64,000 nt of DNA from a virus (lineage: Duplodnaviria; Caudoviricetes): IMG/VR virus record IMGVR_UViG_2600255093_000008, positions 15,992-79,991 of that record; one strand, given 5' to 3'. Below, in pieces: positions 16,917 through 62,421 of the stretch (its first letter is position 1; every line of letters starts with the position of its first letter). The notes beneath the pieces were generated by a model. The model did not search any database, was not told the DNA's origin, and saw only the letters and a list, made by a program, of their open reading frames with translations. Position numbers and translations under genes: made by a program.

Positions 16917-16961
16917 TTGGCTGCCCCAGAATCCGAAGCGTTGCGAAAGTGCTCTTTCCTA

Positions 16962-17005
16962 GGGTGACTGACGGGATTTGAACCCGCGACTTCCAGATCC
17001 ACAAT
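16962..17005 (-). tRNA. 3' half of tRNA-His(GTG); att core copy, not a complete tRNA
   Basis: ATTGTGGATCTGGAAGTCGCGGGTTCAAATCCCGTCAGTCACCC gives anticodon loop, T arm and acceptor 3' strand; no 5' half upstream. Confidence 0.85.
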
Positions 17006-17101
17006 GTAGCACGTTGTTGGCGCAAGTCGTTTCAGCATCAAGCCTTTCGACACGTCCTGTATACGCTTGCGTACTACTTGCGTAAAGACCTGTTCCGGAC
17101 G

Positions 17102-17110
17102 TGGTAGAAT
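17102..17110 (+). promoter_or_regulatory. Extended -10 promoter for the sigma-like gene
   Basis: TGGTAGAAT about 40 nt before ATG 17149. Confidence 0.5.
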
Positions 17111-17148: not shown

Positions 17149-17721
17149 ATGCCCGCAACCAGGAAGCGGCAGCCCAAATCCGCGCACACACCCGATCCCG
17201 ACGCACCAACGCCCCGTGAATTGAGACTCGACGCGGCCGATCACGTCGCGTGGGCCAAATCCCGCGCTCGTGGGGTGCGTGCCGACTTCGGTTTCCTGGA
17301 GGGGTCCGCGGAGGAAGAGGAGCTGGAGTCCGTCGCCCTGGCCGCGCTGGTGCGACTGATTGACCGGTTCGACGAGTCCCGTTTGCCGCCCGGTGGTGAT
17401 CTGGCCAAGGCGTTCCGGGGCGCGTCCAGCACTGCGATCCGCTCGGAGTGCCGGCGCGCGGGTGAGCAGCTCCGCAACGGCGGGACGTACCGCACGAAGC
17501 AGGGCGGGTATCTGGTCGTCGGCGGTCTGCCGGTGAATGCCGACGGCGAAGAGGAAGTGACCGATCCCGTCTCGCTCGAAGAGGACGACCACGACGGGTC
17601 ATTGATCGCTGAGCCGGCAGTGTTCGCCAAGGCGCGCACCGGGACCGGGCCGAACGCCGTGGCGCAGCCCGGGGACACTCGCGCGCGGTTTGCGGCCCTG
17701 CTCGCGCAACTGAGGGGCTAG
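17149..17721 (+). CDS. Sigma70-family protein with region 2 but no region 4
   Basis: H.AWAKSRA / EELESVALAALVRLIDRFD / FRGASSTAIRSECRRA align by eye with sigma regions 2.1-2.4; PVSLE resembles region 3.2; no C-terminal HTH. Confidence 0.72.
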   Translation: MPATRKRQPKSAHTPDPDAPTPRELRLDAADHVAWAKSRARGVRADFGFLEGSAEEEELESVALAALVRLIDRFDESRLPPGGDLAKAFRGASSTAIRSECRRAGEQLRNGGTYRTKQGGYLVVGGLPVNADGEEEVTDPVSLEEDDHDGSLIAEPAVFAKARTGTGPNAVAQPGDTRARFAALLAQLRG

Positions 17722-18008
17722 GACTTCTTCCGGCGCGCAGGCTTCTCCGGATCGGGCGGCGCATCGGGTAACGGCGGATCAGCCGGCGGCATTGGCGGGG
17801 GGTTGTCCATGTGCCGCCGCAACGCCCGCTCAATCACGTAGGTAAGCGTCTGACCCCGCGACTCTGTGAACGCACGCACCTCGCTCAACAACTTCGGGTC
17901 GAGAATCACGTTGATCTGGCCGGATCGGTCTTTTACTGGCACTTCCACACTCCCTGTGTACTCCCGCGACCGACGCGGGCTAAGGCCATCATACCCGACT
18001 TTTTCCAC
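17718..18008 (-). CDS. Ribbon-helix-helix (CopG/Arc-like) regulator
   Basis: QINVILDPKLLSEVRAFTESRGQTLTYVIERALRRH. Confidence 0.8.
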   Translation of the reverse strand: MEKVGYDGLSPRRSREYTGSVEVPVKDRSGQINVILDPKLLSEVRAFTESRGQTLTYVIERALRRHMDNPPPMPPADPPLPDAPPDPEKPARRKKS

Positions 18009-18011
18009 GGG

Positions 18012-18063
18012 TCTAGATTTTTTCTAGATTCCGGTTGACATGGATCTAGATCGGGTATAGATT
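18012..18063 (+). promoter_or_regulatory. Sigma70 promoter overlapped by phased TCTAGA sites
   Basis: TTGACA 18035-18040, 17 bp, TAGATT; TCTAGA at 18012, 18023, 18045 and TATAGA at 18056. Confidence 0.7.
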
Positions 18064-18069
18064 ACAAGT

Positions 18070-18291
18070 GTGACGCGAACGAGACACCTGACCTGGAGAG
18101 ACGAGATGACTGCGACAACGACCTTCTTCGCCTACCGCATCCAAAACGGGCAACGGCACTTCTTCGAGTTCGAGCGGTGCGACACCTGGAATAGCCGCGA
18201 AGAGTTAATGGCCGCGATCGAGAAGTGGAAGAAGACCGTGCCTGAAAACTACGCGGCCCGGGTCACCTTCGAGATTCACCAGGACAACTGA
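18070..18291 (+). CDS. Hypothetical protein (may start at ATG 18107)
   Basis: GGAGA SD; first gene after the promoter. Confidence 0.6.
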   Translation: MTRTRHLTWRDEMTATTTFFAYRIQNGQRHFFEFERCDTWNSREELMAAIEKWKKTVPENYAARVTFEIHQDN

Positions 18292-18350
18292 GCGACACAC
18301 CGGGGCGGGTCGCAGTGACCCGCCCTCCCTCACCCGAACCGGATTAGCCC

Positions 18351-18659
18351 ATGCCGATGGCCACTATCGCAATGACCCGCGACGCAGCCTACATCGTCGT
18401 CGCATTCCGCCCGAAGTCCGAGCCGTTGCCCGAAGGATTCGCCGAATTCACTGAGTCGAAAAACACCGTGCAGTACGCGGAGGGGCACCGGTTCGCGGGC
18501 CAACTGGAGATGGTCGCGGTGAAGCTGATGAAGGACGGGCGAGGCGATCCGGACCTGATGCCGATGCTCACTGCCGCCGACTGGCTCCGGGATCGCGGAT
18601 GGACCATCGAGCCAGAAGGGTGGTGCAAGTTGGTGATGCAGGAGATCGGAGCGGCCTGA
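18351..18659 (+). CDS. Hypothetical protein
   Basis: Flanked by hairpins; protein-like composition. Confidence 0.6.
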   Translation: MPMATIAMTRDAAYIVVAFRPKSEPLPEGFAEFTESKNTVQYAEGHRFAGQLEMVAVKLMKDGRGDPDLMPMLTAADWLRDRGWTIEPEGWCKLVMQEIGAA

Positions 18660-18737
18660 TTCAAACGACGCGGGGCGGGGAGTGCTGCTAACACCTCCCG
18701 CCCCACTTCTCAAACCCTGTTCAGGAGGGATCGAGCC

Positions 18738-19085
18738 ATGACAGTGTACACGGAACTACTGCCCCCCACCAAGTCGGAGAAGCACGGCGCCCTGAAGTGG
18801 GAGCCGGCCACCGACAACGCGACCAGCCCCTTTGCCGGCGTGCTCACGCTGACCGGCCGACGCGACCACTGCCGGTATCGCGTCGAAGAGCATCCCGCCG
18901 ACGAACCAGGCCGGGCGTTCGTGCTGTGGAAGCTCGACGCTGGCACCGACCGCACCGAAGAACGGTACGGGTGCTTCGTCGCGAAGAACAACGCTCACCT
19001 GTGCGAGTGCCGGGGGTTCACCGCAACCCGACACTGCAAACACCTCGCGGGCCTCACCGAACTCGTGGGAGCGAAGAAACTGTGA
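18738..19085 (+). CDS. SWIM zinc-finger protein
   Basis: CECRGF...CKH; GGAGGG SD. Confidence 0.8.
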   Translation: MTVYTELLPPTKSEKHGALKWEPATDNATSPFAGVLTLTGRRDHCRYRVEEHPADEPGRAFVLWKLDAGTDRTEERYGCFVAKNNAHLCECRGFTATRHCKHLAGLTELVGAKKL

Positions 19086-19228
19086 TCCAGTACCTACACG
19101 CCCTGGTGGGTTTCGTTGGGTCCGTCGGATGGTTCGTATGGTTCGCGATCGCCTCTGTCTGGCACGTGCTCTGGCCGATGGTCGGCGGGGCCTTTCTCTG
19201 GGAGGCCGTTCGGAACCGGAAGTGGTAG
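19082..19228 (+). CDS. Small membrane protein (48 aa)
   Basis: GTGA overlap; hydrophobic MIQYLHALVGFVGSVGWFVWFAIASVWHVLWPMVGGAFLWEAVRNRKW. Confidence 0.5.
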   Translation: MIQYLHALVGFVGSVGWFVWFAIASVWHVLWPMVGGAFLWEAVRNRKW

Positions 19229-19294
19229 ATCGCTGTCGAACTAATTGCGGGGCGGATCAACGCCCCTTTACCTCACACTAAACGAGTCACTCAC

Positions 19295-19591
19295 ATGATT
19301 TTCTCAATCACGCACGCCACCTGGCAACAACTCCGCGTTCTGGTCCGCGCAAAGGGCAAGCCCGTCCTCGGGCGCGATATCCGGATCGTGCCAACGCGCC
19401 TCACCAAAACGGGCGAGTTTCTCGACGAACTGGTCGAGGCGGGGTTGATCGTCCGGGCTGAAGGGAAGCTCGCCACAGGTCGCGAGCCGGAACAGTTCCG
19501 CGCGAGTTACACGCTGACCGAGAAGGGGAAACATGCCGCAGAGTACGGCGAATATGAGCGGGTACGAGAGCCGCAGCAGACTGCCGGCTGA
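19295..19591 (+). CDS. Winged-helix protein
   Basis: LDELVEAGLI...YTLTEKG wing motif. Confidence 0.65.
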   Translation: MIFSITHATWQQLRVLVRAKGKPVLGRDIRIVPTRLTKTGEFLDELVEAGLIVRAEGKLATGREPEQFRASYTLTEKGKHAAEYGEYERVREPQQTAG

Positions 19592-19786
19592 CGCAAGATG
19601 CGTCCCCGATTGCCCCTTCTCTCACGGGGAGGGGAGTAACCCCGCCTCACGCACGGACGCGATGGGCGGGGTGATTTATTTGGTTTTTCTTGGTTGATTT
19701 TAGTTGATACGGCGGTATTATACCTGTGTCGGAGCAAACGCCCGACAGGTGCCCGGGCCTTCCGGGACTCCCAACAAGGGAAGACG

Positions 19787-20098
19787 ATGGTCGAAGTAGA
19801 TGTGCTCATCCCGACGGCCGACAACGCGGGCCTGATGTTCCTGCCCGCTCACCACGCGATCTTCGAGCAATTCGTGCTCGCCCTGTTCCCCGGCTTCTCG
19901 CTTCAGCCCGGTACGGTGTCCGGTGCCTGGACCGACGCGGGAACCGTGTACCGCGACGAACTGCGAGTGTACACGCTCCGCGTGTCCGGCCTCATCGCCA
20001 ACGGCCCCGCTCTCCGCGAGGTGATCGACTTCGCGAAATCCCACTACGCACAACTGGCCCTCTACGCCCGCTACCTGAACGTGTCCGAAATCCTCTGA
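19787..20098 (+). CDS. Small ferredoxin-fold-like protein (candidate toxin)
   Basis: VLIPTADNAG...GAW...G.VYRDE alternating beta/alpha pattern. Confidence 0.55.
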   Translation: MVEVDVLIPTADNAGLMFLPAHHAIFEQFVLALFPGFSLQPGTVSGAWTDAGTVYRDELRVYTLRVSGLIANGPALREVIDFAKSHYAQLALYARYLNVSEIL

Positions 20099-20153
20099 TC
20101 CGACTCGCTCCCCCGGTGAAGACCGGGGGAGCTTCAACCCTGGGGTGAGTACC

Positions 20154-20945
20154 ATGAATCGCTACGAACTGCTCTCCGGAGAAGTGGTGGAGTACGACAC
20201 TCTACCAGCCCCGCTCGCCGCGTTCTTGACCCGTGTTCAGTCGGCCGCGAGTGACCTCGCCGTATCACCGGCCGCACTCCTGGCCCTGGTGTACGGCGTC
20301 GAAAACCCGCTGCTCGACACCACCACCGCTCCGGGCCGAGCGATCGTGAACGCGACCGCCTTCGCTCACCCCGTCTACAAGGTGCTCGGCGACCTGGTGG
20401 GGCGTAAGCAACTCGCAGCACTCAACCAGTCTCCCGAGCAGGTTGTTGCCGCGTACACGCTCACGGTGAAGGCCGCGGCCGAGCGGATCGGGCTGAGCGA
20501 AACCGCGACCAGGACCGCGATCCAGGGCGGGAAACTGGACGCGATGAAGCGGAACGGGGAATGGTACGTGCGGCCCGAATCGGTCGATTCCTACAAGGTC
20601 AGCAACCGCGGGCGGAAGAAGGCGGTCCCCGCGGCGGTGCGGGTGAGGTGCGGCGGCGCGGACGGGGTAAGCCTGTCCGTGCGGCTCGCGGGCGGGGAAC
20701 TGGTCGCCGAGGGCAAGGACGGAGGAGCTGTCGTCGGTCGATTCCCGGACGGGTGGACCGCCGCGGCCGTGAAGACGACCACCAAGACCGGCGCCCGCGT
20801 GTTCGAGATCGAGCCGGAGGCGGGTACCGAGGAAGTGGTCGAGTTCGGCGAGTTCGAGGTACGCGGGCCGTTCAAGGTCGTGAAGAAGCACAACGCAACG
20901 AAGGTCGCGGCCGAGGTGTGGAAGAAATACGCGGCCGAAGCGTAG
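20154..20945 (+). CDS. Protein with central excisionase-type HTH (HTH_17-like)
   Basis: LTVKAAAERIGLSETATRTAIQGGKLDAMKRNGEWYVRPESV. Confidence 0.7.
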   Translation: MNRYELLSGEVVEYDTLPAPLAAFLTRVQSAASDLAVSPAALLALVYGVENPLLDTTTAPGRAIVNATAFAHPVYKVLGDLVGRKQLAALNQSPEQVVAAYTLTVKAAAERIGLSETATRTAIQGGKLDAMKRNGEWYVRPESVDSYKVSNRGRKKAVPAAVRVRCGGADGVSLSVRLAGGELVAEGKDGGAVVGRFPDGWTAAAVKTTTKTGARVFEIEPEAGTEEVVEFGEFEVRGPFKVVKKHNATKVAAEVWKKYAAEA

Positions 20946-21202
20946 CAGCGGGCCAACGGATCGGCTCTAATGTCTGCGGCTGAAAGGCTCGCCCGGTGAC
21001 GGGGGCGTTAGGCGACACATTCACGAGTCGCAAGCTCGAACGTATCAGTAGCCGCTGTCATGGGGTAAGGCGTGAGTACCCTGCGGCCGGGCGGTCGCGA
21101 CCACGTCTGCCGGAGCGCCCCACCCTGGAGCGGCTCCGGCCTCTGCCCGGCGGCCGGGCACAAGGGGAAACCCAGCCGCATTGTTACGATCAAAATACAG
21201 AC

Positions 21203-21228
21203 GGCCCGCGGGAGCACTCCCGCGGGCC
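21203..21228. terminator. Hairpin at the convergence of late operon and accessory block
   Basis: GGCCCGCGGGAG / CTCCCGCGGGCC inverted repeat. Confidence 0.65.
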
Positions 21229-21253
21229 GGCCTCATTACTGCTCGTCTTTCAC

Positions 21254-21448
21254 TCACGCCGGAAGCAGCGTCTTAAACAGTTCGAGCGCGAGGTCATCTA
21301 ACGGTGTGGGCGTGGCCTTCACCACGAACGCCAGCGCCGGCCCGTGAATCAGTCTGCGGATGAACGCCTGGCCGTCCGCGCTCGCCACCTGACCGGCCTG
21401 CACTCGCGCGGCCACTTTCTCGACCAGATCCAGCAATGCACTATTCAT
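21254..21448 (-). CDS. Small holin-like/lysis-module protein (64 aa)
   Basis: AAGGA SD; ALAFVVKATPTPLDDLAL resembles the T.T..DD motif of small phage membrane proteins. Confidence 0.45.
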   Translation of the reverse strand: MNSALLDLVEKVAARVQAGQVASADGQAFIRRLIHGPALAFVVKATPTPLDDLALELFKTLLPA

Positions 21449-24584: not shown

Positions 24585-24600
24585 GACCGGCTAATGGCAC
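24585..24600 (-). promoter_or_regulatory. Conserved 16-nt motif, copy A (GTGCCATTAGCCGGTC)
   Basis: One of 8 copies; followed by a short leader with GAGGG SD. Confidence 0.75.
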
Positions 24601-27280: not shown

Positions 27281-27658
27281 TCAGCCCACCGGGTTGGGAC
27301 GGGGGTTGACCGCGATCTTCCGGACCAGTGGCCCCAACTGGTCGTTCGCCGCGATCATCTGCCGGACCACCACGAGCACGCGCAGGAACGCGATCACGTC
27401 GTGGTTCGTGAGGAGACTTCGGGCGCCGGCGTCGCTCCCGGTGATGCCCTGCGCGGCCCCGAGCGCGGTGTAATCGCTCGCGTCCCACGGCTCGTCGCGG
27501 AGGAGTTCCGCGTCCGTGGTCCCGAGGGCCGCGGCAAGGCCCTGGCCAACGACCGCGTCAAGTGCCGCCGTCGGCACCGTGAGTACCCCGGCGAGCAGGT
27601 CCGCGGTCGCCCGCACCGTCTCATTGGTGAGCTTCAGAAGTACCGGGTTGTCGATCAT
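27281..27658 (-). CDS. Helical virion/tail-associated protein
   Basis: MIDNPVLLKL start chosen; operon position. Confidence 0.6.
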   Translation of the reverse strand: MIDNPVLLKLTNETVRATADLLAGVLTVPTAALDAVVGQGLAAALGTTDAELLRDEPWDASDYTALGAAQGITGSDAGARSLLTNHDVIAFLRVLVVVRQMIAANDQLGPLVRKIAVNPRPNPVG

Positions 27659-27887
27659 TGCCCGTGCCCTCCACCTTCGCGACCTTCTGCCACCCGATCT
27701 TTTTTGCGACGCGGAGGCACTCGACGTAGCTCGGGAACCGCACCCCGGCTTCGCGCTTGTATCTCTCGATCGCCGCGAGGAACTCTTCCTCGTCCGCGTC
27801 ATACTCGCTTCCGGGGAACGTCCCCTCGTGGCTCACGAGCTGGGGGATCGCGCCCCCTTTCCGCTTCTTGGGGAGGAGCTTCCTCAT
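27621..27887 (-). CDS. Conserved planctomycete-type small helical protein
   Basis: EYDADEEEFLAAIERYKR..G.RFP.Y.E.L.V.K.IG; ATG abuts motif copy B. Confidence 0.65.
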   Translation of the reverse strand: MRKLLPKKRKGGAIPQLVSHEGTFPGSEYDADEEEFLAAIERYKREAGVRFPSYVECLRVAKKIGWQKVAKVEGTGNDRQPGTSEAHQ

Positions 27888-27903
27888 GACCGGCCAATGG
27901 CAC
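27888..27903 (-). promoter_or_regulatory. 16-nt motif, copy B, abutting ATG
   Basis: GTGCCATTGGCCGGTC|ATG. Confidence 0.8.
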
Positions 27904-30830: not shown

Positions 30831-30846
30831 GACCGGCAAATGGCAC
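30831..30846 (-). promoter_or_regulatory. 16-nt motif, copy C, abutting ATG
   Basis: GTGCCATTTGCCGGTC|ATG. Confidence 0.8.
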
Positions 30847-40822: not shown

Positions 40823-40838
40823 GACCGGCCAATGGCAC
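40823..40838 (-). promoter_or_regulatory. 16-nt motif, copy D, abutting ATG
   Basis: GTGCCATTGGCCGGTC|ATG. Confidence 0.8.
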
Positions 40839-44066: not shown

Positions 44067-44082
44067 GACCGGCCAATGGCAC
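44067..44082 (-). promoter_or_regulatory. 16-nt motif, copy E, abutting ATG
   Basis: GTGCCATTGGCCGGTC|ATG. Confidence 0.8.
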
Positions 44083-44085
44083 CGG

Positions 44086-44490
44086 CTACACCTGGTGCGT
44101 GCCTTCGACGCCACGTGCGAGTCGATCCTTCGTGCGTTGCTGCAAAGACGCACGCGCGGACCGCAGTGAGCTGAGCGCGTCTGCGTTGTACGGATGCGCG
44201 AACGGGCCGTTCTGGAAACCCTCCAGTCGGTCGATCAGGATCGTGAGCAACACTTCGTGCGTCAGCCCGTTAGTTCCGACTTCGGGGATCGGGCCGTTTT
44301 GGAACAGGATCGTCGAATGTTGAGCGGGCTGACCATGACGCGCCGTCCACGGATCGGACGGATTAGTTCCGCTATTGAATCCTTCGACCTGGTAGAGGTG
44401 CGGCGCGCCGCCCTTGCCCGGCTCGTCGAGCACAGTGATAGTGAGATGGTCGTTGCAACCGTTTACCTTGTGGCCGTTCAACTCGCGCAT
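44086..44490 (-). CDS. tad1: Tad1-family anti-Thoeris signal sponge
   Basis: GGAPH.Y, FQNGP..E.G.NG, LL.ILIDRL.GFQ.GPF...N, RT.DR..RGVEGT match the recalled Tad1 motif set. Confidence 0.82.
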   Translation of the reverse strand: MRELNGHKVNGCNDHLTITVLDEPGKGGAPHLYQVEGFNSGTNPSDPWTARHGQPAQHSTILFQNGPIPEVGTNGLTHEVLLTILIDRLEGFQNGPFAHPYNADALSSLRSARASLQQRTKDRLARGVEGTHQV

Positions 44491-44520: not shown

Positions 44521-44536
44521 GAACGGCCAATGGCAC
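44521..44536 (-). promoter_or_regulatory. 16-nt motif, copy F
   Basis: GTGCCATTGGCCGTTC, then a 30-nt leader with GGAG SD. Confidence 0.75.
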
Positions 44537-47695: not shown

Positions 47696-47711
47696 GCCCG
47701 GCAAATGGCAC
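47696..47711 (-). promoter_or_regulatory. 16-nt motif, copy G, abutting terS ATG
   Basis: GTGCCATTTGCCGGGC|ATG. Confidence 0.78.
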
Positions 47712-48439
47712 TATTCCGCACCTGCCGATTCTTCCGTCAGATCGCGAATCACCACTGTGAGCGTCTCATACGCCGGCCAGCGATCACCCTCGAACGGCAC
47801 CCCGTGACGCTCGGCAACCTGCCGAAACCGATCGGCCAGTGGACCGGCCAACAGCTCGGGAATCGCACCAAACACGCGATCCCGGTCGGCGCGGTACAAA
47901 GTCGATAACGCCCGCCGGAACCGTTCCAGGGGCCGAAACGCCAAGTTTGAACCGGGGGGTTCAAGCTCAAGACCGGCCGCACTTGCGATATCCCTGACAA
48001 TTTGCGTCTGACTGATACCCTCGGCATGAGCGATATCACGTGTCGTCAGGCCACGGTCACGCAACGCGACAATGCGGGCCAGTCGCTCTTCGCGCCGGGC
48101 ACTCTGCTCGGCCGGACTCAGGTGCCTGCGATCAATGTTCAGGTCCAGGCACTCGATCCGCGCGTCGTCGTCGCTCATCGGCCCCCGGTGTTGGACCGGA
48201 ATATCGATCGGGTGTTCCATCTCGCTCACGATCCGCAACCGATTGGCCCCGTCGATCACGCACCGATCACCCCATGTCGGGCTGTCGTAAGTCACGACGC
48301 GAGTCAGGACCCTGCGACGTCGGGTAATCGACTCCGTAAGGCCCGCGGCCTCCCGCTTGTTCAGCGGCCGGATCAGATCAGCAAACGGGAGCCGGTATAA
48401 CAGCCCGCCCAGGCGAATCACCTTCACTGTCTCACTCAC
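47711..48439 (-). CDS. ParB-like N-terminal domain plus HTH protein
   Basis: FADLIRPL..L.ESI, VIDGANR, LNIDRRHL, GLTTRDIAHAEGISQTQI. Confidence 0.8.
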   Translation of the reverse strand: MSETVKVIRLGGLLYRLPFADLIRPLNKREAAGLTESITRRRRVLTRVVTYDSPTWGDRCVIDGANRLRIVSEMEHPIDIPVQHRGPMSDDDARIECLDLNIDRRHLSPAEQSARREERLARIVALRDRGLTTRDIAHAEGISQTQIVRDIASAAGLELEPPGSNLAFRPLERFRRALSTLYRADRDRVFGAIPELLAGPLADRFRQVAERHGVPFEGDRWPAYETLTVVIRDLTEESAGAE

Positions 48440-48630
48440 GCTTTGGCCCTCGCCTTGGTGTTCGGATCTTTCCCCGCTTCGAGCCGCATCCAGCTCCCGT
48501 TCCTCAGCCCACTCTTGTCCATCAGCGCCAGGGCCTGCGGTCCCGTTTCCGCCCGACCGACCTCGCGCCACTTGTGCCGCTTCGTCTCCCGGTACCACAA
48601 CACGACCTGCGGATTATTCTGATCGCTCAC
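48436..48630 (-). CDS. Small hypothetical protein
   Basis: GTGA-coupled; W.R...KW..VG motif. Confidence 0.6.
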   Translation of the reverse strand: MSDQNNPQVVLWYRETKRHKWREVGRAETGPQALALMDKSGLRNGSWMRLEAGKDPNTKARAKA

Positions 48631-52331: not shown

Positions 52332-52634
52332 CTACTCGGATGACTGGTTATCGATCCACTTCTGAAGCTCGCAGATGGTGCCAGAGAGCCGGCACGCGAC
52401 TGCGTACCAGTACCCTGCGTGAATCTCGGTCAGGTGATCGCGAAACGTCTGAGTTCCGCCGTCGCCTTTAGTTGGTACCGCGTCGGCAATCAGCTTCGGC
52501 AGGATCGCGACAGCACACTCTCCGCAGACGTAAACATCCTGACGGCCCGACCACATAGCTGAGGCCAGGTCGCCGCAATTGAAACACGGCTTGGCTGGCG
52601 GGGCCTCTTCGGGCCGGGGGTACTGAATTCGCAT
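52332..52634 (-). CDS. Zinc-finger hypothetical protein
   Basis: CFNC...CGEC. Confidence 0.55.
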   Translation of the reverse strand: MRIQYPRPEEAPPAKPCFNCGDLASAMWSGRQDVYVCGECAVAILPKLIADAVPTKGDGGTQTFRDHLTEIHAGYWYAVACRLSGTICELQKWIDNQSSE

Positions 52635-53077
52635 CAGACAGCCTCTCTGCTTTTCTGGTTCCTTCCGGTGGCCACTTTGCGAACGTTCTGTTCGGCCTCG
52701 GCTCGTAGTTCGGCCCGCGCCGCGGCGAGTTCTTCGGGAGTAGGGAACCGCCGACCGGTGATCGCCTCACACAACTCCTTCAGCACCGCGGCGCCGCGCT
52801 CGACAATGCTGAGCGCGGCGCGATCGTCTGCGAATTCGGCGCGCATCACCTCACCCCACGTAAACGCGACCCGCGGAAACATGATCGCGGCCGGGCGCTG
52901 GTCAGCGGGGCGCTGGTCGATCTCGTCGGAGACAACCAGGTCGATGCCCAACTGTTTCTTTGCGATCGCCCGCCAAGTGTCGGACGTGTCCTCGTGATCC
53001 GCGAGCCACGCCCAATAATCAGGTGGCACCCGGTCGAGAGGTTCGCCGCGGTATCTACCGAACGGGATGCGGAGCAC
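52634..53077 (-). CDS. DUF3820-like protein
   Basis: IPFGRYRGEPL..VP.DY..W; GGAGG SD. Confidence 0.75.
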   Translation of the reverse strand: MLRIPFGRYRGEPLDRVPPDYWAWLADHEDTSDTWRAIAKKQLGIDLVVSDEIDQRPADQRPAAIMFPRVAFTWGEVMRAEFADDRAALSIVERGAAVLKELCEAITGRRFPTPEELAAARAELRAEAEQNVRKVATGRNQKSREAV

Positions 53078-53108: not shown

Positions 53109-53124
53109 AATCGGCCAATGGCAC
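53109..53124 (-). promoter_or_regulatory. 16-nt motif, copy H
   Basis: GTGCCATTGGCCGATT, then a leader with GGAGG SD. Confidence 0.7.
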
Positions 53125-61374: not shown

Positions 61375-62304
61375 TCAGGCCACCATCGGGAGCGCGACGC
61401 GGCGCAGCGCCGACACCGCTTTTCGACTGCCCCACCCGTGTACCGCGAAGCCGATGGCGAGCGTCGCGCCGGCGAGACGAGCGTCGTTGAAGCACAACCG
61501 GCAGTCGGTACAGACGCGGTCGCGGGTTTGCTGCGGGCACGGGACGACCTTCACCCCGTCAACCTCGTGGGCGACGTCCGACGCGAACTCCGGCACCACG
61601 ATCGCCGCGGCGTACCCACGGGCGCGGGCCAGGAGCACATCGGCCCCGGTCTCACAGCTCGCGAGGATGGACACCGTACCCCACGCATCGCGCGGAACCG
61701 TCCGCCAGGCGTGCGTGTAGGCCCAGACCCGGACCGCCAGGCCGAGCTGCCGGCCCCGCTCCACGTACCGAGCACATGCCGCCGCGATGAGTCGGGTGCC
61801 CTCGTCGGTGGTCGAATCGCCGGCGACGTGGAGCCGCAAGTCACGGTCACCCGGCAGACCGTCGATCGCCGCGGCCTCGGCACGGGCCAGGTCGAGCGGC
61901 GTCGCTTCCATCGCGCCCGCCGTGATCCGGTCCCAGATGACGCGGTTGTTGTCGTGCTCCGCGTAGCAGCCCTTCTGGTGGAACGCGCACGACGTCGGGC
62001 ACGACTGGCGAGCGACGATCGTGACGGCAGCCTGACCGAGCTTCGCGTTCTTTGAGTTCGCGACCACCGTGACGCCCGATCCCTTCTTGACCTTTGCGGC
62101 ACGCTTCGCGGCCCACTTAACGACCTGGTGCCCGTAGCACATGAACGGGCCACGCATCCGCGCCTTGAGCCGACCGTCGCTGATCGCTCGGTGGACGTTG
62201 CCCACGTCCAGACCGATAACCTTCGCGATCTGTGCGGCCGTGTACAGGCGCGACCCGCTAAGCTGTGCGCGCACGCGCGCCAGTGATTCCGCCGGGGTAA
62301 TCAT
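61375..62304 (-). CDS. HTH_17 fused to GP88-like Fe-S/radical-SAM-like domain
   Basis: YTAAQIAKVIG HTH; SCPTSC....GCYAE, RLHVAGD, WAYTH, CPQQ...CTDCRLC. Confidence 0.72.
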   Translation of the reverse strand: MITPAESLARVRAQLSGSRLYTAAQIAKVIGLDVGNVHRAISDGRLKARMRGPFMCYGHQVVKWAAKRAAKVKKGSGVTVVANSKNAKLGQAAVTIVARQSCPTSCAFHQKGCYAEHDNNRVIWDRITAGAMEATPLDLARAEAAAIDGLPGDRDLRLHVAGDSTTDEGTRLIAAACARYVERGRQLGLAVRVWAYTHAWRTVPRDAWGTVSILASCETGADVLLARARGYAAAIVVPEFASDVAHEVDGVKVVPCPQQTRDRVCTDCRLCFNDARLAGATLAIGFAVHGWGSRKAVSALRRVALPMVA

Positions 62305-62320
62305 TCCTTTGACCCTCTTG

Positions 62321-62421
62321 AGCGCCGCGGCCGGGAGTCGAACCCGGCAACCGACCCGTTCTCCACACCACCGCGTCACGGGAGTCGTCTTGTGTCAACG
62401 CGGTAGCTAGTCGTCGCAGCA
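62321..62421 (-). ncRNA. tRNA-like structured RNA, copy 2
   Basis: Same scaffold as copy 1 with T stem GCCGGG/CCCGGC (compensatory changes). Confidence 0.65.

Follow-up and report, generated by a model that had tools for sequence, protein, structure and literature searches.

The window analysed here, a stretch of 64,000 nucleotides, corresponds to C6:15994-79993 within a genome of 9.27 Mb and 22 contigs; the nearest homologues of the 190-aa protein considered below are found in Gemmata, and the host is a Gemmata-like planctomycete. Blastn repeats place the 3' fragment of a tRNA-His gene at three sites of contig C6 (8182-8226; 32944-33053, that is 16951-17060 of the window; and 82417-82478), with the intact tRNA-His at C6 c[82428-82502], and this threefold occurrence indicates two prophages in tandem. 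These prophages are unrelated to each other, with a GC3 of about 0.6 for prophage 1 and about 0.8 for prophage 2, and a fourth copy of the tRNA-His fragment lies on another contig (C9:306858-306903). Prophage 2 spans ~49 kb, from ~17013 to ~66430 in window coordinates, its right end lying past the window, and it opens, at 137 nt from the att core, with the sigma-like open reading frame (ORF) that is the subject of this work (Table 1).

This ORF, which runs from an ATG at 17149 to a TAG ending at 17721, is intact, has the bounds that had initially been proposed and encodes 190 aa; its GC3 of 0.79 fits prophage 2, not prophage 1. The start codon is backed by the 'MP...' N-termini conserved among homologues, and a GTG at 17101, considered as an alternative start, was discarded since the homologues begin with the 'MP' of the ATG at 17149. 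A two-hexamer scan found no promoter 5' of the gene, and a comparison of gene-upstream regions between loci revealed no conservation. By eye, a possible host-type extended -10 element (TGgTAGAAT) is present, and a TATAAT occupies a similar place upstream of the homologue at locus L004; both elements would fit early transcription by the host holoenzyme. Downstream, a 3.5-kb cassette (17718-21301) stands between the sigma-like gene and the late-block end; it comprises one RHH-like gene and small ORFs that form an operon, the promoter of which reads TTGACA-17-TAGATT (18035-18063). This cassette looks like an insertion, because at L004 and in a related prophage on contig C2 of the same genome, the sigma-like gene adjoins the last late-block gene directly.

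Table 1. Features of prophage 2 discussed in the text, in window coordinates, with the observations on which each assignment is based.
Feature	Position	Strand	Basis
att junction, tRNA-His 3' fragment common to both tandem prophages; left end of prophage 2	16951..17012	.	blastn repeats
Possible host-type extended -10 (TGgTAGAAT), 39 nt 5' of the ATG	17102..17110	+	by eye
Gene for 190-aa sigma-like protein, first in prophage 2	17149..17721	+	ORF, GC3, homologues at 49-58% identity in Gemmata, family of 180 representatives
Sigma domain 2-like three-helix core, residues 29-111	17233..17481	+	AlphaFold2, VIA, hhalign
Acidic linker with little regular structure, residues 115-176; holds 'PVSLE'	17491..17676	+	AlphaFold2 pLDDT, column conservation
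C-terminal amphipathic basic helix, residues 177-189 (RFAALLAQLR)	17677..17715	+	AlphaFold2
Motif copy 1; short leader with AGAGGG, then last (lysis-position) gene block	24585..24600	-	
Motif copy 2; ATG at position 17 is the start of an 88-aa ORF	27888..27903	-	
Motif copy 3; ATG at position 17 is the start of a 416-aa tail-region protein	30831..30846	-	
Motif copy 4; ATG at position 17 is the start of a 366-aa head-region protein; variant motif at the same junction in the C2 homologue	40823..40838	-	
Motif copy 5; ATG at position 17 is the start of the portal protein	44067..44082	-	phrog_21 portal, E 3.9e-98
Motif copy 6; leader with GGAG, then gene 44086-44490	44521..44536	-	
Motif copy 7; ATG at position 17 is the start of the small terminase subunit	47696..47711	-	Terminase_2 match from residue 3
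Motif copy 8; ~30-nt leader with GGAGG, then gene 52634-53077 and polymerase/primase block	53109..53124	-	

What kind of protein does this gene encode? Taken alone, the 190-aa query had no Pfam match at E<=1 and none in PHROGs, NCBIfam or PDB sequences, and profiles built from its family likewise retrieved nothing from Pfam, PHROGs, NCBIfam and PDB. A word-indexed search returned five Gemmata homologues at 49-58% identity, and an exhaustive search extended the family to 180 cluster representatives at E<=0.001 (97 at E<=1e-10), which have in common a core matching query residues about 20-120. When 112 family members were scanned singly at E<=1, half of them (56) matched PF04542 Sigma70_r2, with a best E-value of 9.5e-9; the query belongs to Sigma70_r2 transitively, its phmmer E-values to the matching members being 1e-10 to 1e-57. 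Aligned by hhalign with 50 region-2 stretches of host sigma factors, the family core gave a probability of 95.7% (E 1e-8, 51 columns), region 2 of the host ECF (group 4) sigma factors being its best profile match. Neighbours in the ESM Atlas belong to 'hypothetical protein' clusters, are viral wherever a taxon is recorded, and in some cases carry Sigma70_r2 on part of the members. The conserved family register, F89-x-x-[W/Y/F]92-A93-x3-I97-R98-x4-R103, resembles what we take to be the gapless register F427..Y430-A431..I435-R436..R441 of sigma70.

The predicted structure leads to the same domain. An AlphaFold2 model built on a 112-sequence alignment contains three helices (residues 29-47, 54-73 and 85-109), with a pLDDT of 94-98 over residues 31-110, and the best match of this model in a VIA search against all representatives is the E. 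coli sigma70 fragment 1sig_A (Z 8.5, rmsd 2.2, 69 residues aligned), followed by SigB (8x6g_H, Z 8.4), the N-terminal domain of SigE (8b3z_A, 8.3), SigA domain 2 (4x8k_A, 8.0), sigma32 (8hkc_E, 7.9) and RpoS region 2 (7.6). Sigma domain 2 thus makes up eight of the ten best VIA matches (Z 8.5-7.4), and another match is a scaffold (3les); Foldseek against PDB gave weak E-values of 0.22-1.5, with SigB on top at 0.22. Since, for a helical bundle, such Z values are moderate when taken alone, the assignment relies on profile and structure together, and from their agreement the sigma-2 homology of the protein is solid. The region 2-like block announced by the original prediction is accordingly borne out at the level of the family and of the structure, in both of which sigma domain 2 ranks first, the query on its own matching nothing.

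Some residues of the query depart from this pattern. At family column 92 (n=112), which presumably corresponds to the sigma70 residue Y430 used in promoter opening, W (56), Y (26) and F (13) account for 95 of the 112 members, and A is found in three; the query has Ala there, and so lacks the aromatic residue expected from this register. It also differs from the family at A105G and R107Q. Could the gene then be a decaying remnant without current function? These three deviations fall at strongly conserved columns, and lone copies of the gene exist in other genomes. Against this, the frame is intact, the GC3 is like that of the rest of the prophage, and 21 of the ~24 strongly conserved columns are kept, so that we consider decay very improbable.

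Beyond the core, a region 4 was looked for and not found: the 190-aa protein has no Sigma70_r4 or helix-turn-helix match, as had been anticipated, and residues 110-190 are modelled as a low-confidence linker with two short helices. One of these (140-145) is the single helix predicted between residues 110 and 176, where pLDDT falls to 72-83 over 111-140 and to 45-62 over 141-170. The other, at the C-terminus, counts 13 residues and is too short for a helix-turn-helix; a loose [WR]xx[FYW][LVA]xx[LRK] pattern occurs in the last 40 residues of 14 of 154 family proteins, and by eye ~10 have a comparable C-terminal helix. The string 'PVSLE', which had been read as a region 3.2, is present at residues 140-144 (nt 17566-17580), within the acidic linker, but this label is unsupported and we do not accept it, because its 'SLE' is kept in the closest Gemmata relatives only.

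True Sigma70_r4 domains are found in few relatives (P0042, 6.6e-10; P0055, 7.3e-6), which suggests that most members of the family probably lost region 4. Other relatives (P0029-P0152) carry zinc ribbons, one of them with a weak Ogr/Delta-like match, and by eye some have ParB-like C-terminal or DUF3102-like N-terminal modules, while four members hold inserts of about 100 residues between helices 2 and 3. The family, in which helix 3 is followed by an invariant 'RLRNGGTY' segment of its own, is a sigma-2 module with interchangeable partners.

The second component of the locus is a 16-nt motif, whose reality had been claimed together with the gene and withstands counting: GTGCCATT occurs nine times in the window for 1.64 expected, and the 13-mer GTGCCATTNGCCG has eight copies in the 9.27-Mb genome, all of them in prophage 2, on its minus (late-gene) strand, between 24.6 and 53.1 kb. 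Each of the eight starts 2-8 nt past the upstream stop codon (0-6 nt between). In five of them an ATG stands at motif position 17, and in the other three the motif is followed by leaders of ~15-30 nt with GGAG-type sites. For the small terminase, this ATG is the true start, since the Terminase_2 Pfam match begins at residue 3. The units led by the motif comprise a block with polymerase/primase, both terminase subunits and a small gene, then the portal, one protein of the head region, genes of the tail region and the last block; no copy was found in the helicase/methylase/RDF-like region at 53-64 kb. The 88-aa ORF that follows copy 2 (27621-27887, minus strand) overlaps, in another frame, the 5' part of a longer ORF (27281-27802), which probably has its true start further downstream.

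Conservation around the copies is confined to 18 positions, from -16 to +2, with nothing further upstream, and the absence of a -35 block therefore stands as it was first described. If the A of the ATG is numbered +1, the motif has an invariant A at -11, TG at -15/-14, a 6-nt spacer to +1 and a G at -7, which, apart from the G in place of T at -7, fits the arrangement of an extended -10 promoter that lacks a -35 and gives leaderless mRNAs. The fixed spacing between motif and ATG could equally serve a function at the RNA level, and the motif might be a processing site, a start signal independent of Shine-Dalgarno sequences or the site of another late regulator, the protein acting on other promoters. 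Such a signal would explain why the motif replaces a Shine-Dalgarno sequence, with constant spacing to the ATG and 0-6 nt from the upstream stop, and why -7 is G and not T; in addition, helix-turn-helix proteins of the prophage (47711-48598 and 61375-62379) could bind DNA. However, three copies precede ordinary GGAG leaders, so that the start codon itself does not require the motif, the copies contain by inspection no GGAG-type (Shine-Dalgarno-like) sequence, and the invariant A and the TG fit a -10 element. A role other than that of a promoter appears fairly improbable.

How specific is the motif outside this prophage? Across the genomes of the Gemmata-like family, GTGCCATYNGCCGG gives a background of one to three matches per genome. 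Four of the single strict matches found out of the genus, reading GTGCCATTTGCCGGNCATG (L061, L062, L063 and L065; G023, G007, G026 and G009), were rejected as phage motifs and attributed to a conserved coding segment, the reverse strand of which, by eye, presumably reads as the ...GKWH... of sulfatase genes; a fifth match of this kind that was fetched (G026:C134) is without a sulfatase-like flank. This sulfatase segment is a source of false motif matches in planctomycete genomes. At the loci of two distant family members (G195 and G156), k-mer enrichment returned GC-rich noise only, and a search for co-variation between protein variants and motif variants found a T/C change at motif position 8 only, with no clear pattern.

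Are gene and motif linked? With a strict pattern that includes the ATG, a tally over 29 genomes of the genus gave six with motif and gene, none with the motif without the gene, four with the gene without the motif (one of which, G137, has variant motif copies) and 19 with neither, every motif-bearing genome also carrying the gene. Our calculation of Fisher's exact test gives p about 4e-4, a value that overstates the case, as the genomes, and their prophages, are kin. The motif-bearing prophages have portal, capsid-like and terminase genes in common, and the co-occurrence of gene and motif may reflect shared descent instead of a functional link.

Within the host genome itself, the single paralogue (C2:536570-537139, 56% identity), which unlike the query retains the aromatic residue of position 92, occupies one end of a related prophage, whose late-gene strand carries variants of the GCCATYnGCCGG type at C2:502583, 514407, 526582, 531328 and 534132, two of them preceding portal-like and capsid-like homologues. 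One IMG/VR provirus was found with a narrower family alignment, and since its gene-to-motif distances match, this provirus and the C2 locus are apparently one element. Fragments of prophages are also present on contig C1 (557-572 kb and 1469-1473 kb), and their tail-tip and glycosyltransferase-region genes, 84-91% identical in protein sequence to those of prophage 2, show mosaic exchange of tail modules. These C1 fragments, tail genes included, contain neither a family member nor a copy of the core motif TGCCATTNGCC; one looser match stands at a fragment edge, on the opposite strand.

Among the other homologous loci, L004 (58% identity) has two motif copies and L042 in G161 (50% identity) has five strict ones, on the strand opposite to the gene and no more than 45 kb from it; three are found in G139, within 37 kb, and another three share the contig of the gene in G136. 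In G244, a genome from a different genus, the sigma-like gene has its ATG exactly where GTGGCATCGGCCGGGC ends (L078 9911-9929, G244:C1098), an arrangement that, judged from sequence, looks like a self-activating, autoregulated sigma factor; a second copy of the motif lies 3.5 kb upstream. Other loci depart from this association. In G. obscuriglobus, a lone gene (G138:C1:1187770-1188237) sits between DUF1501 and chemoreceptor genes, ~240 kb from a prophage (1427179-1458269; L001, L066 and L067) with at least five motif copies. In Gemmata sp. JC673, where the gene has the same chemoreceptor flank, the contig carries unannotated genes and three copies of the motif upstream of it, and on this ground the G. 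obscuriglobus lone copy looks like a remnant; either gene and prophage were parted by a rearrangement, or the gene acts in trans. In G156, the gene is present and no motif was found within 30 kb on either side.

Such lone copies, which in G. obscuriglobus and G156 are intact and lie apart from motif clusters, weigh against a promoter reader, as does the Ala at position 92, and they may be accounted for by a protein that binds RNA polymerase (RNAP) as a decoy or competitor, at the sigma-2 site of the core or via its acidic tail, shutting down the sigma-dependent transcription of the host or of rival phages while another factor reads the motif. The long acidic tail and the lack of a DNA-binding region 4 would suit such a protein, as would the position of the gene: the edge of a prophage, beside att, is typical of accessory genes. 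However, sigma-2 alone is the module that reads the -10, and gp55 of phage T4 works without region 4 (PMC2988020). Moreover, the motif precedes the ATG of the gene itself in G244, and no alternative reader was found among the prophage proteins scanned (about 40 proteins, without any other sigma-like or region-4 protein). A decoy is in our opinion unlikely, while deserving serious attention.

We therefore favour, on account of the geometry of the motif, its co-occurrence with the gene in the genus, the motif-less C1 fragments and the G244 motif placed before the gene itself, a role as promoter reader: the protein would be a phage sigma factor reduced to domain 2 that reads the motif as a late promoter. 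We hold this reading tentatively, with slightly less than even confidence; core binding, motif recognition, start site and timing are its inferred components. Under this scenario, the gene would be transcribed early from a host-type promoter, and its product would bind the core of the host RNAP at the sigma-2 site, on the beta-prime clamp helices, and direct the polymerase, alone or with a partner, to the 16-nt element GTGCCATTnGCCGGTC. This element would act as a -10-only promoter through its TG at -15/-14 and its A at -11, in the absence of a -35, and transcription would start at motif position 17; as the start codon has its A there in five of the eight copies, the polymerase/primase, terminase, portal, head, tail and lysis blocks would be expressed from leaderless mRNAs. 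The sigma-like gene is the best candidate for the switch of the replication, packaging, head, tail and lysis genes.

Several known systems can be compared with this arrangement. ECF sigma factors (group 4) share with the family a segment, 'DLE..A..L....FD......FRGW....R', that resembles their regions 2.1-2.3, as well as the autoregulation-like layout seen in one relative. ECF sigma factors combine sigma-2 with sigma-4 and recognise both -35 and -10 elements, whereas the window protein is without sigma-4 and its motif without a -35, and the two-domain organisation of the group is thus lacking.

The closest parallel in layout is T4 gp55, which comprises a sigma-2-like domain, a linker and a C-terminal tether and reads an 8-bp -10-only late promoter (PMC2988020); this published description agrees with the truncated sigma that the original prediction had taken as its precedent. 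Both proteins are phage-encoded, have a flexible linker between a sigma-2-like domain and a short C-terminal element, lack region 4, and are linked to promoters of the -10 type only, the use of the host RNAP being a prediction for the window protein. This likeness is one of layout and not proof of common descent: in sequence, hhalign aligns gp55 with the family in the right register and without significance (1.3%, E 0.04, 42 columns), and the gp55 structure (7d7d_F) matches the model with a Z of 6.7, below the bacterial sigma domain 2. The motif of the window is GC-rich and 16 nt long, whereas the gp55 promoter is TATAAATA, and, unlike T4, the element belongs to a temperate planctomycete prophage in which leaderless starts are implied.

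A stand-alone sigma-2 is also known in RsoA, encoded beside its sigma-4 partner SigO (PMC8103513), which differs from the window gene in being a host gene and not a phage gene. The division of sigma-4 and sigma-2 over two proteins in SigO-RsoA (PMC8103513), the domain-linker-helix layout parallel to that of gp55, and the relatives in which the domain is fused to region 4, zinc ribbons or, by eye, ParB-like or DUF3102-like modules would all agree with the protein being one half of a split sigma factor, a separate partner taking the region-4/flap-binding role (as gp33 does for gp55, and SigO in the case of RsoA), with the C-terminal helix as a possible tether. In contrast to SigO-RsoA, the neighbours of the window gene (the RHH-like gene and small ORFs) are without Sigma70_r4, and none was seen in the other prophage proteins scanned; a partner similar to gp33 would have no recognisable sequence, and neither a clamp-binding motif nor a gp33-like gene was recognised. 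We regard a split sigma factor as quite improbable here.

To what extent might the promoter-reading role be generalized to the whole family? We find it doubtful, though conceivable, that planctomycete phages would harbor an unannotated sigma-2-only family that retargets the host RNAP to a GC-rich -10-only promoter, drives leaderless late blocks and can activate itself, its C-terminal modules (helix, zinc ribbon, ParB-like, region 4) tethering partners in the way gp55 is tethered to the sliding clamp. No description of this family was found in the literature, and a limited full-text search retrieved no paper on transcription control in planctomycete phages. The present work provides a name and a fold for a family of 180 cluster representatives listed as hypothetical in databases. 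If the promoter-reading role is true, T4 gp55 would be joined by a second, independent case of a sigma factor trimmed to domain 2, and the prophage would offer a very specific promoter (eight copies in 9.27 Mb, in one prophage) that might serve as an orthogonal expression switch in Gemmata, and a testable case of leaderless phage late mRNAs. The host genome itself has a very large complement of sigma factors and sigma fusions, with at least 101 Sigma70_r2 matches, many of them within open frames of 500-1300 aa.
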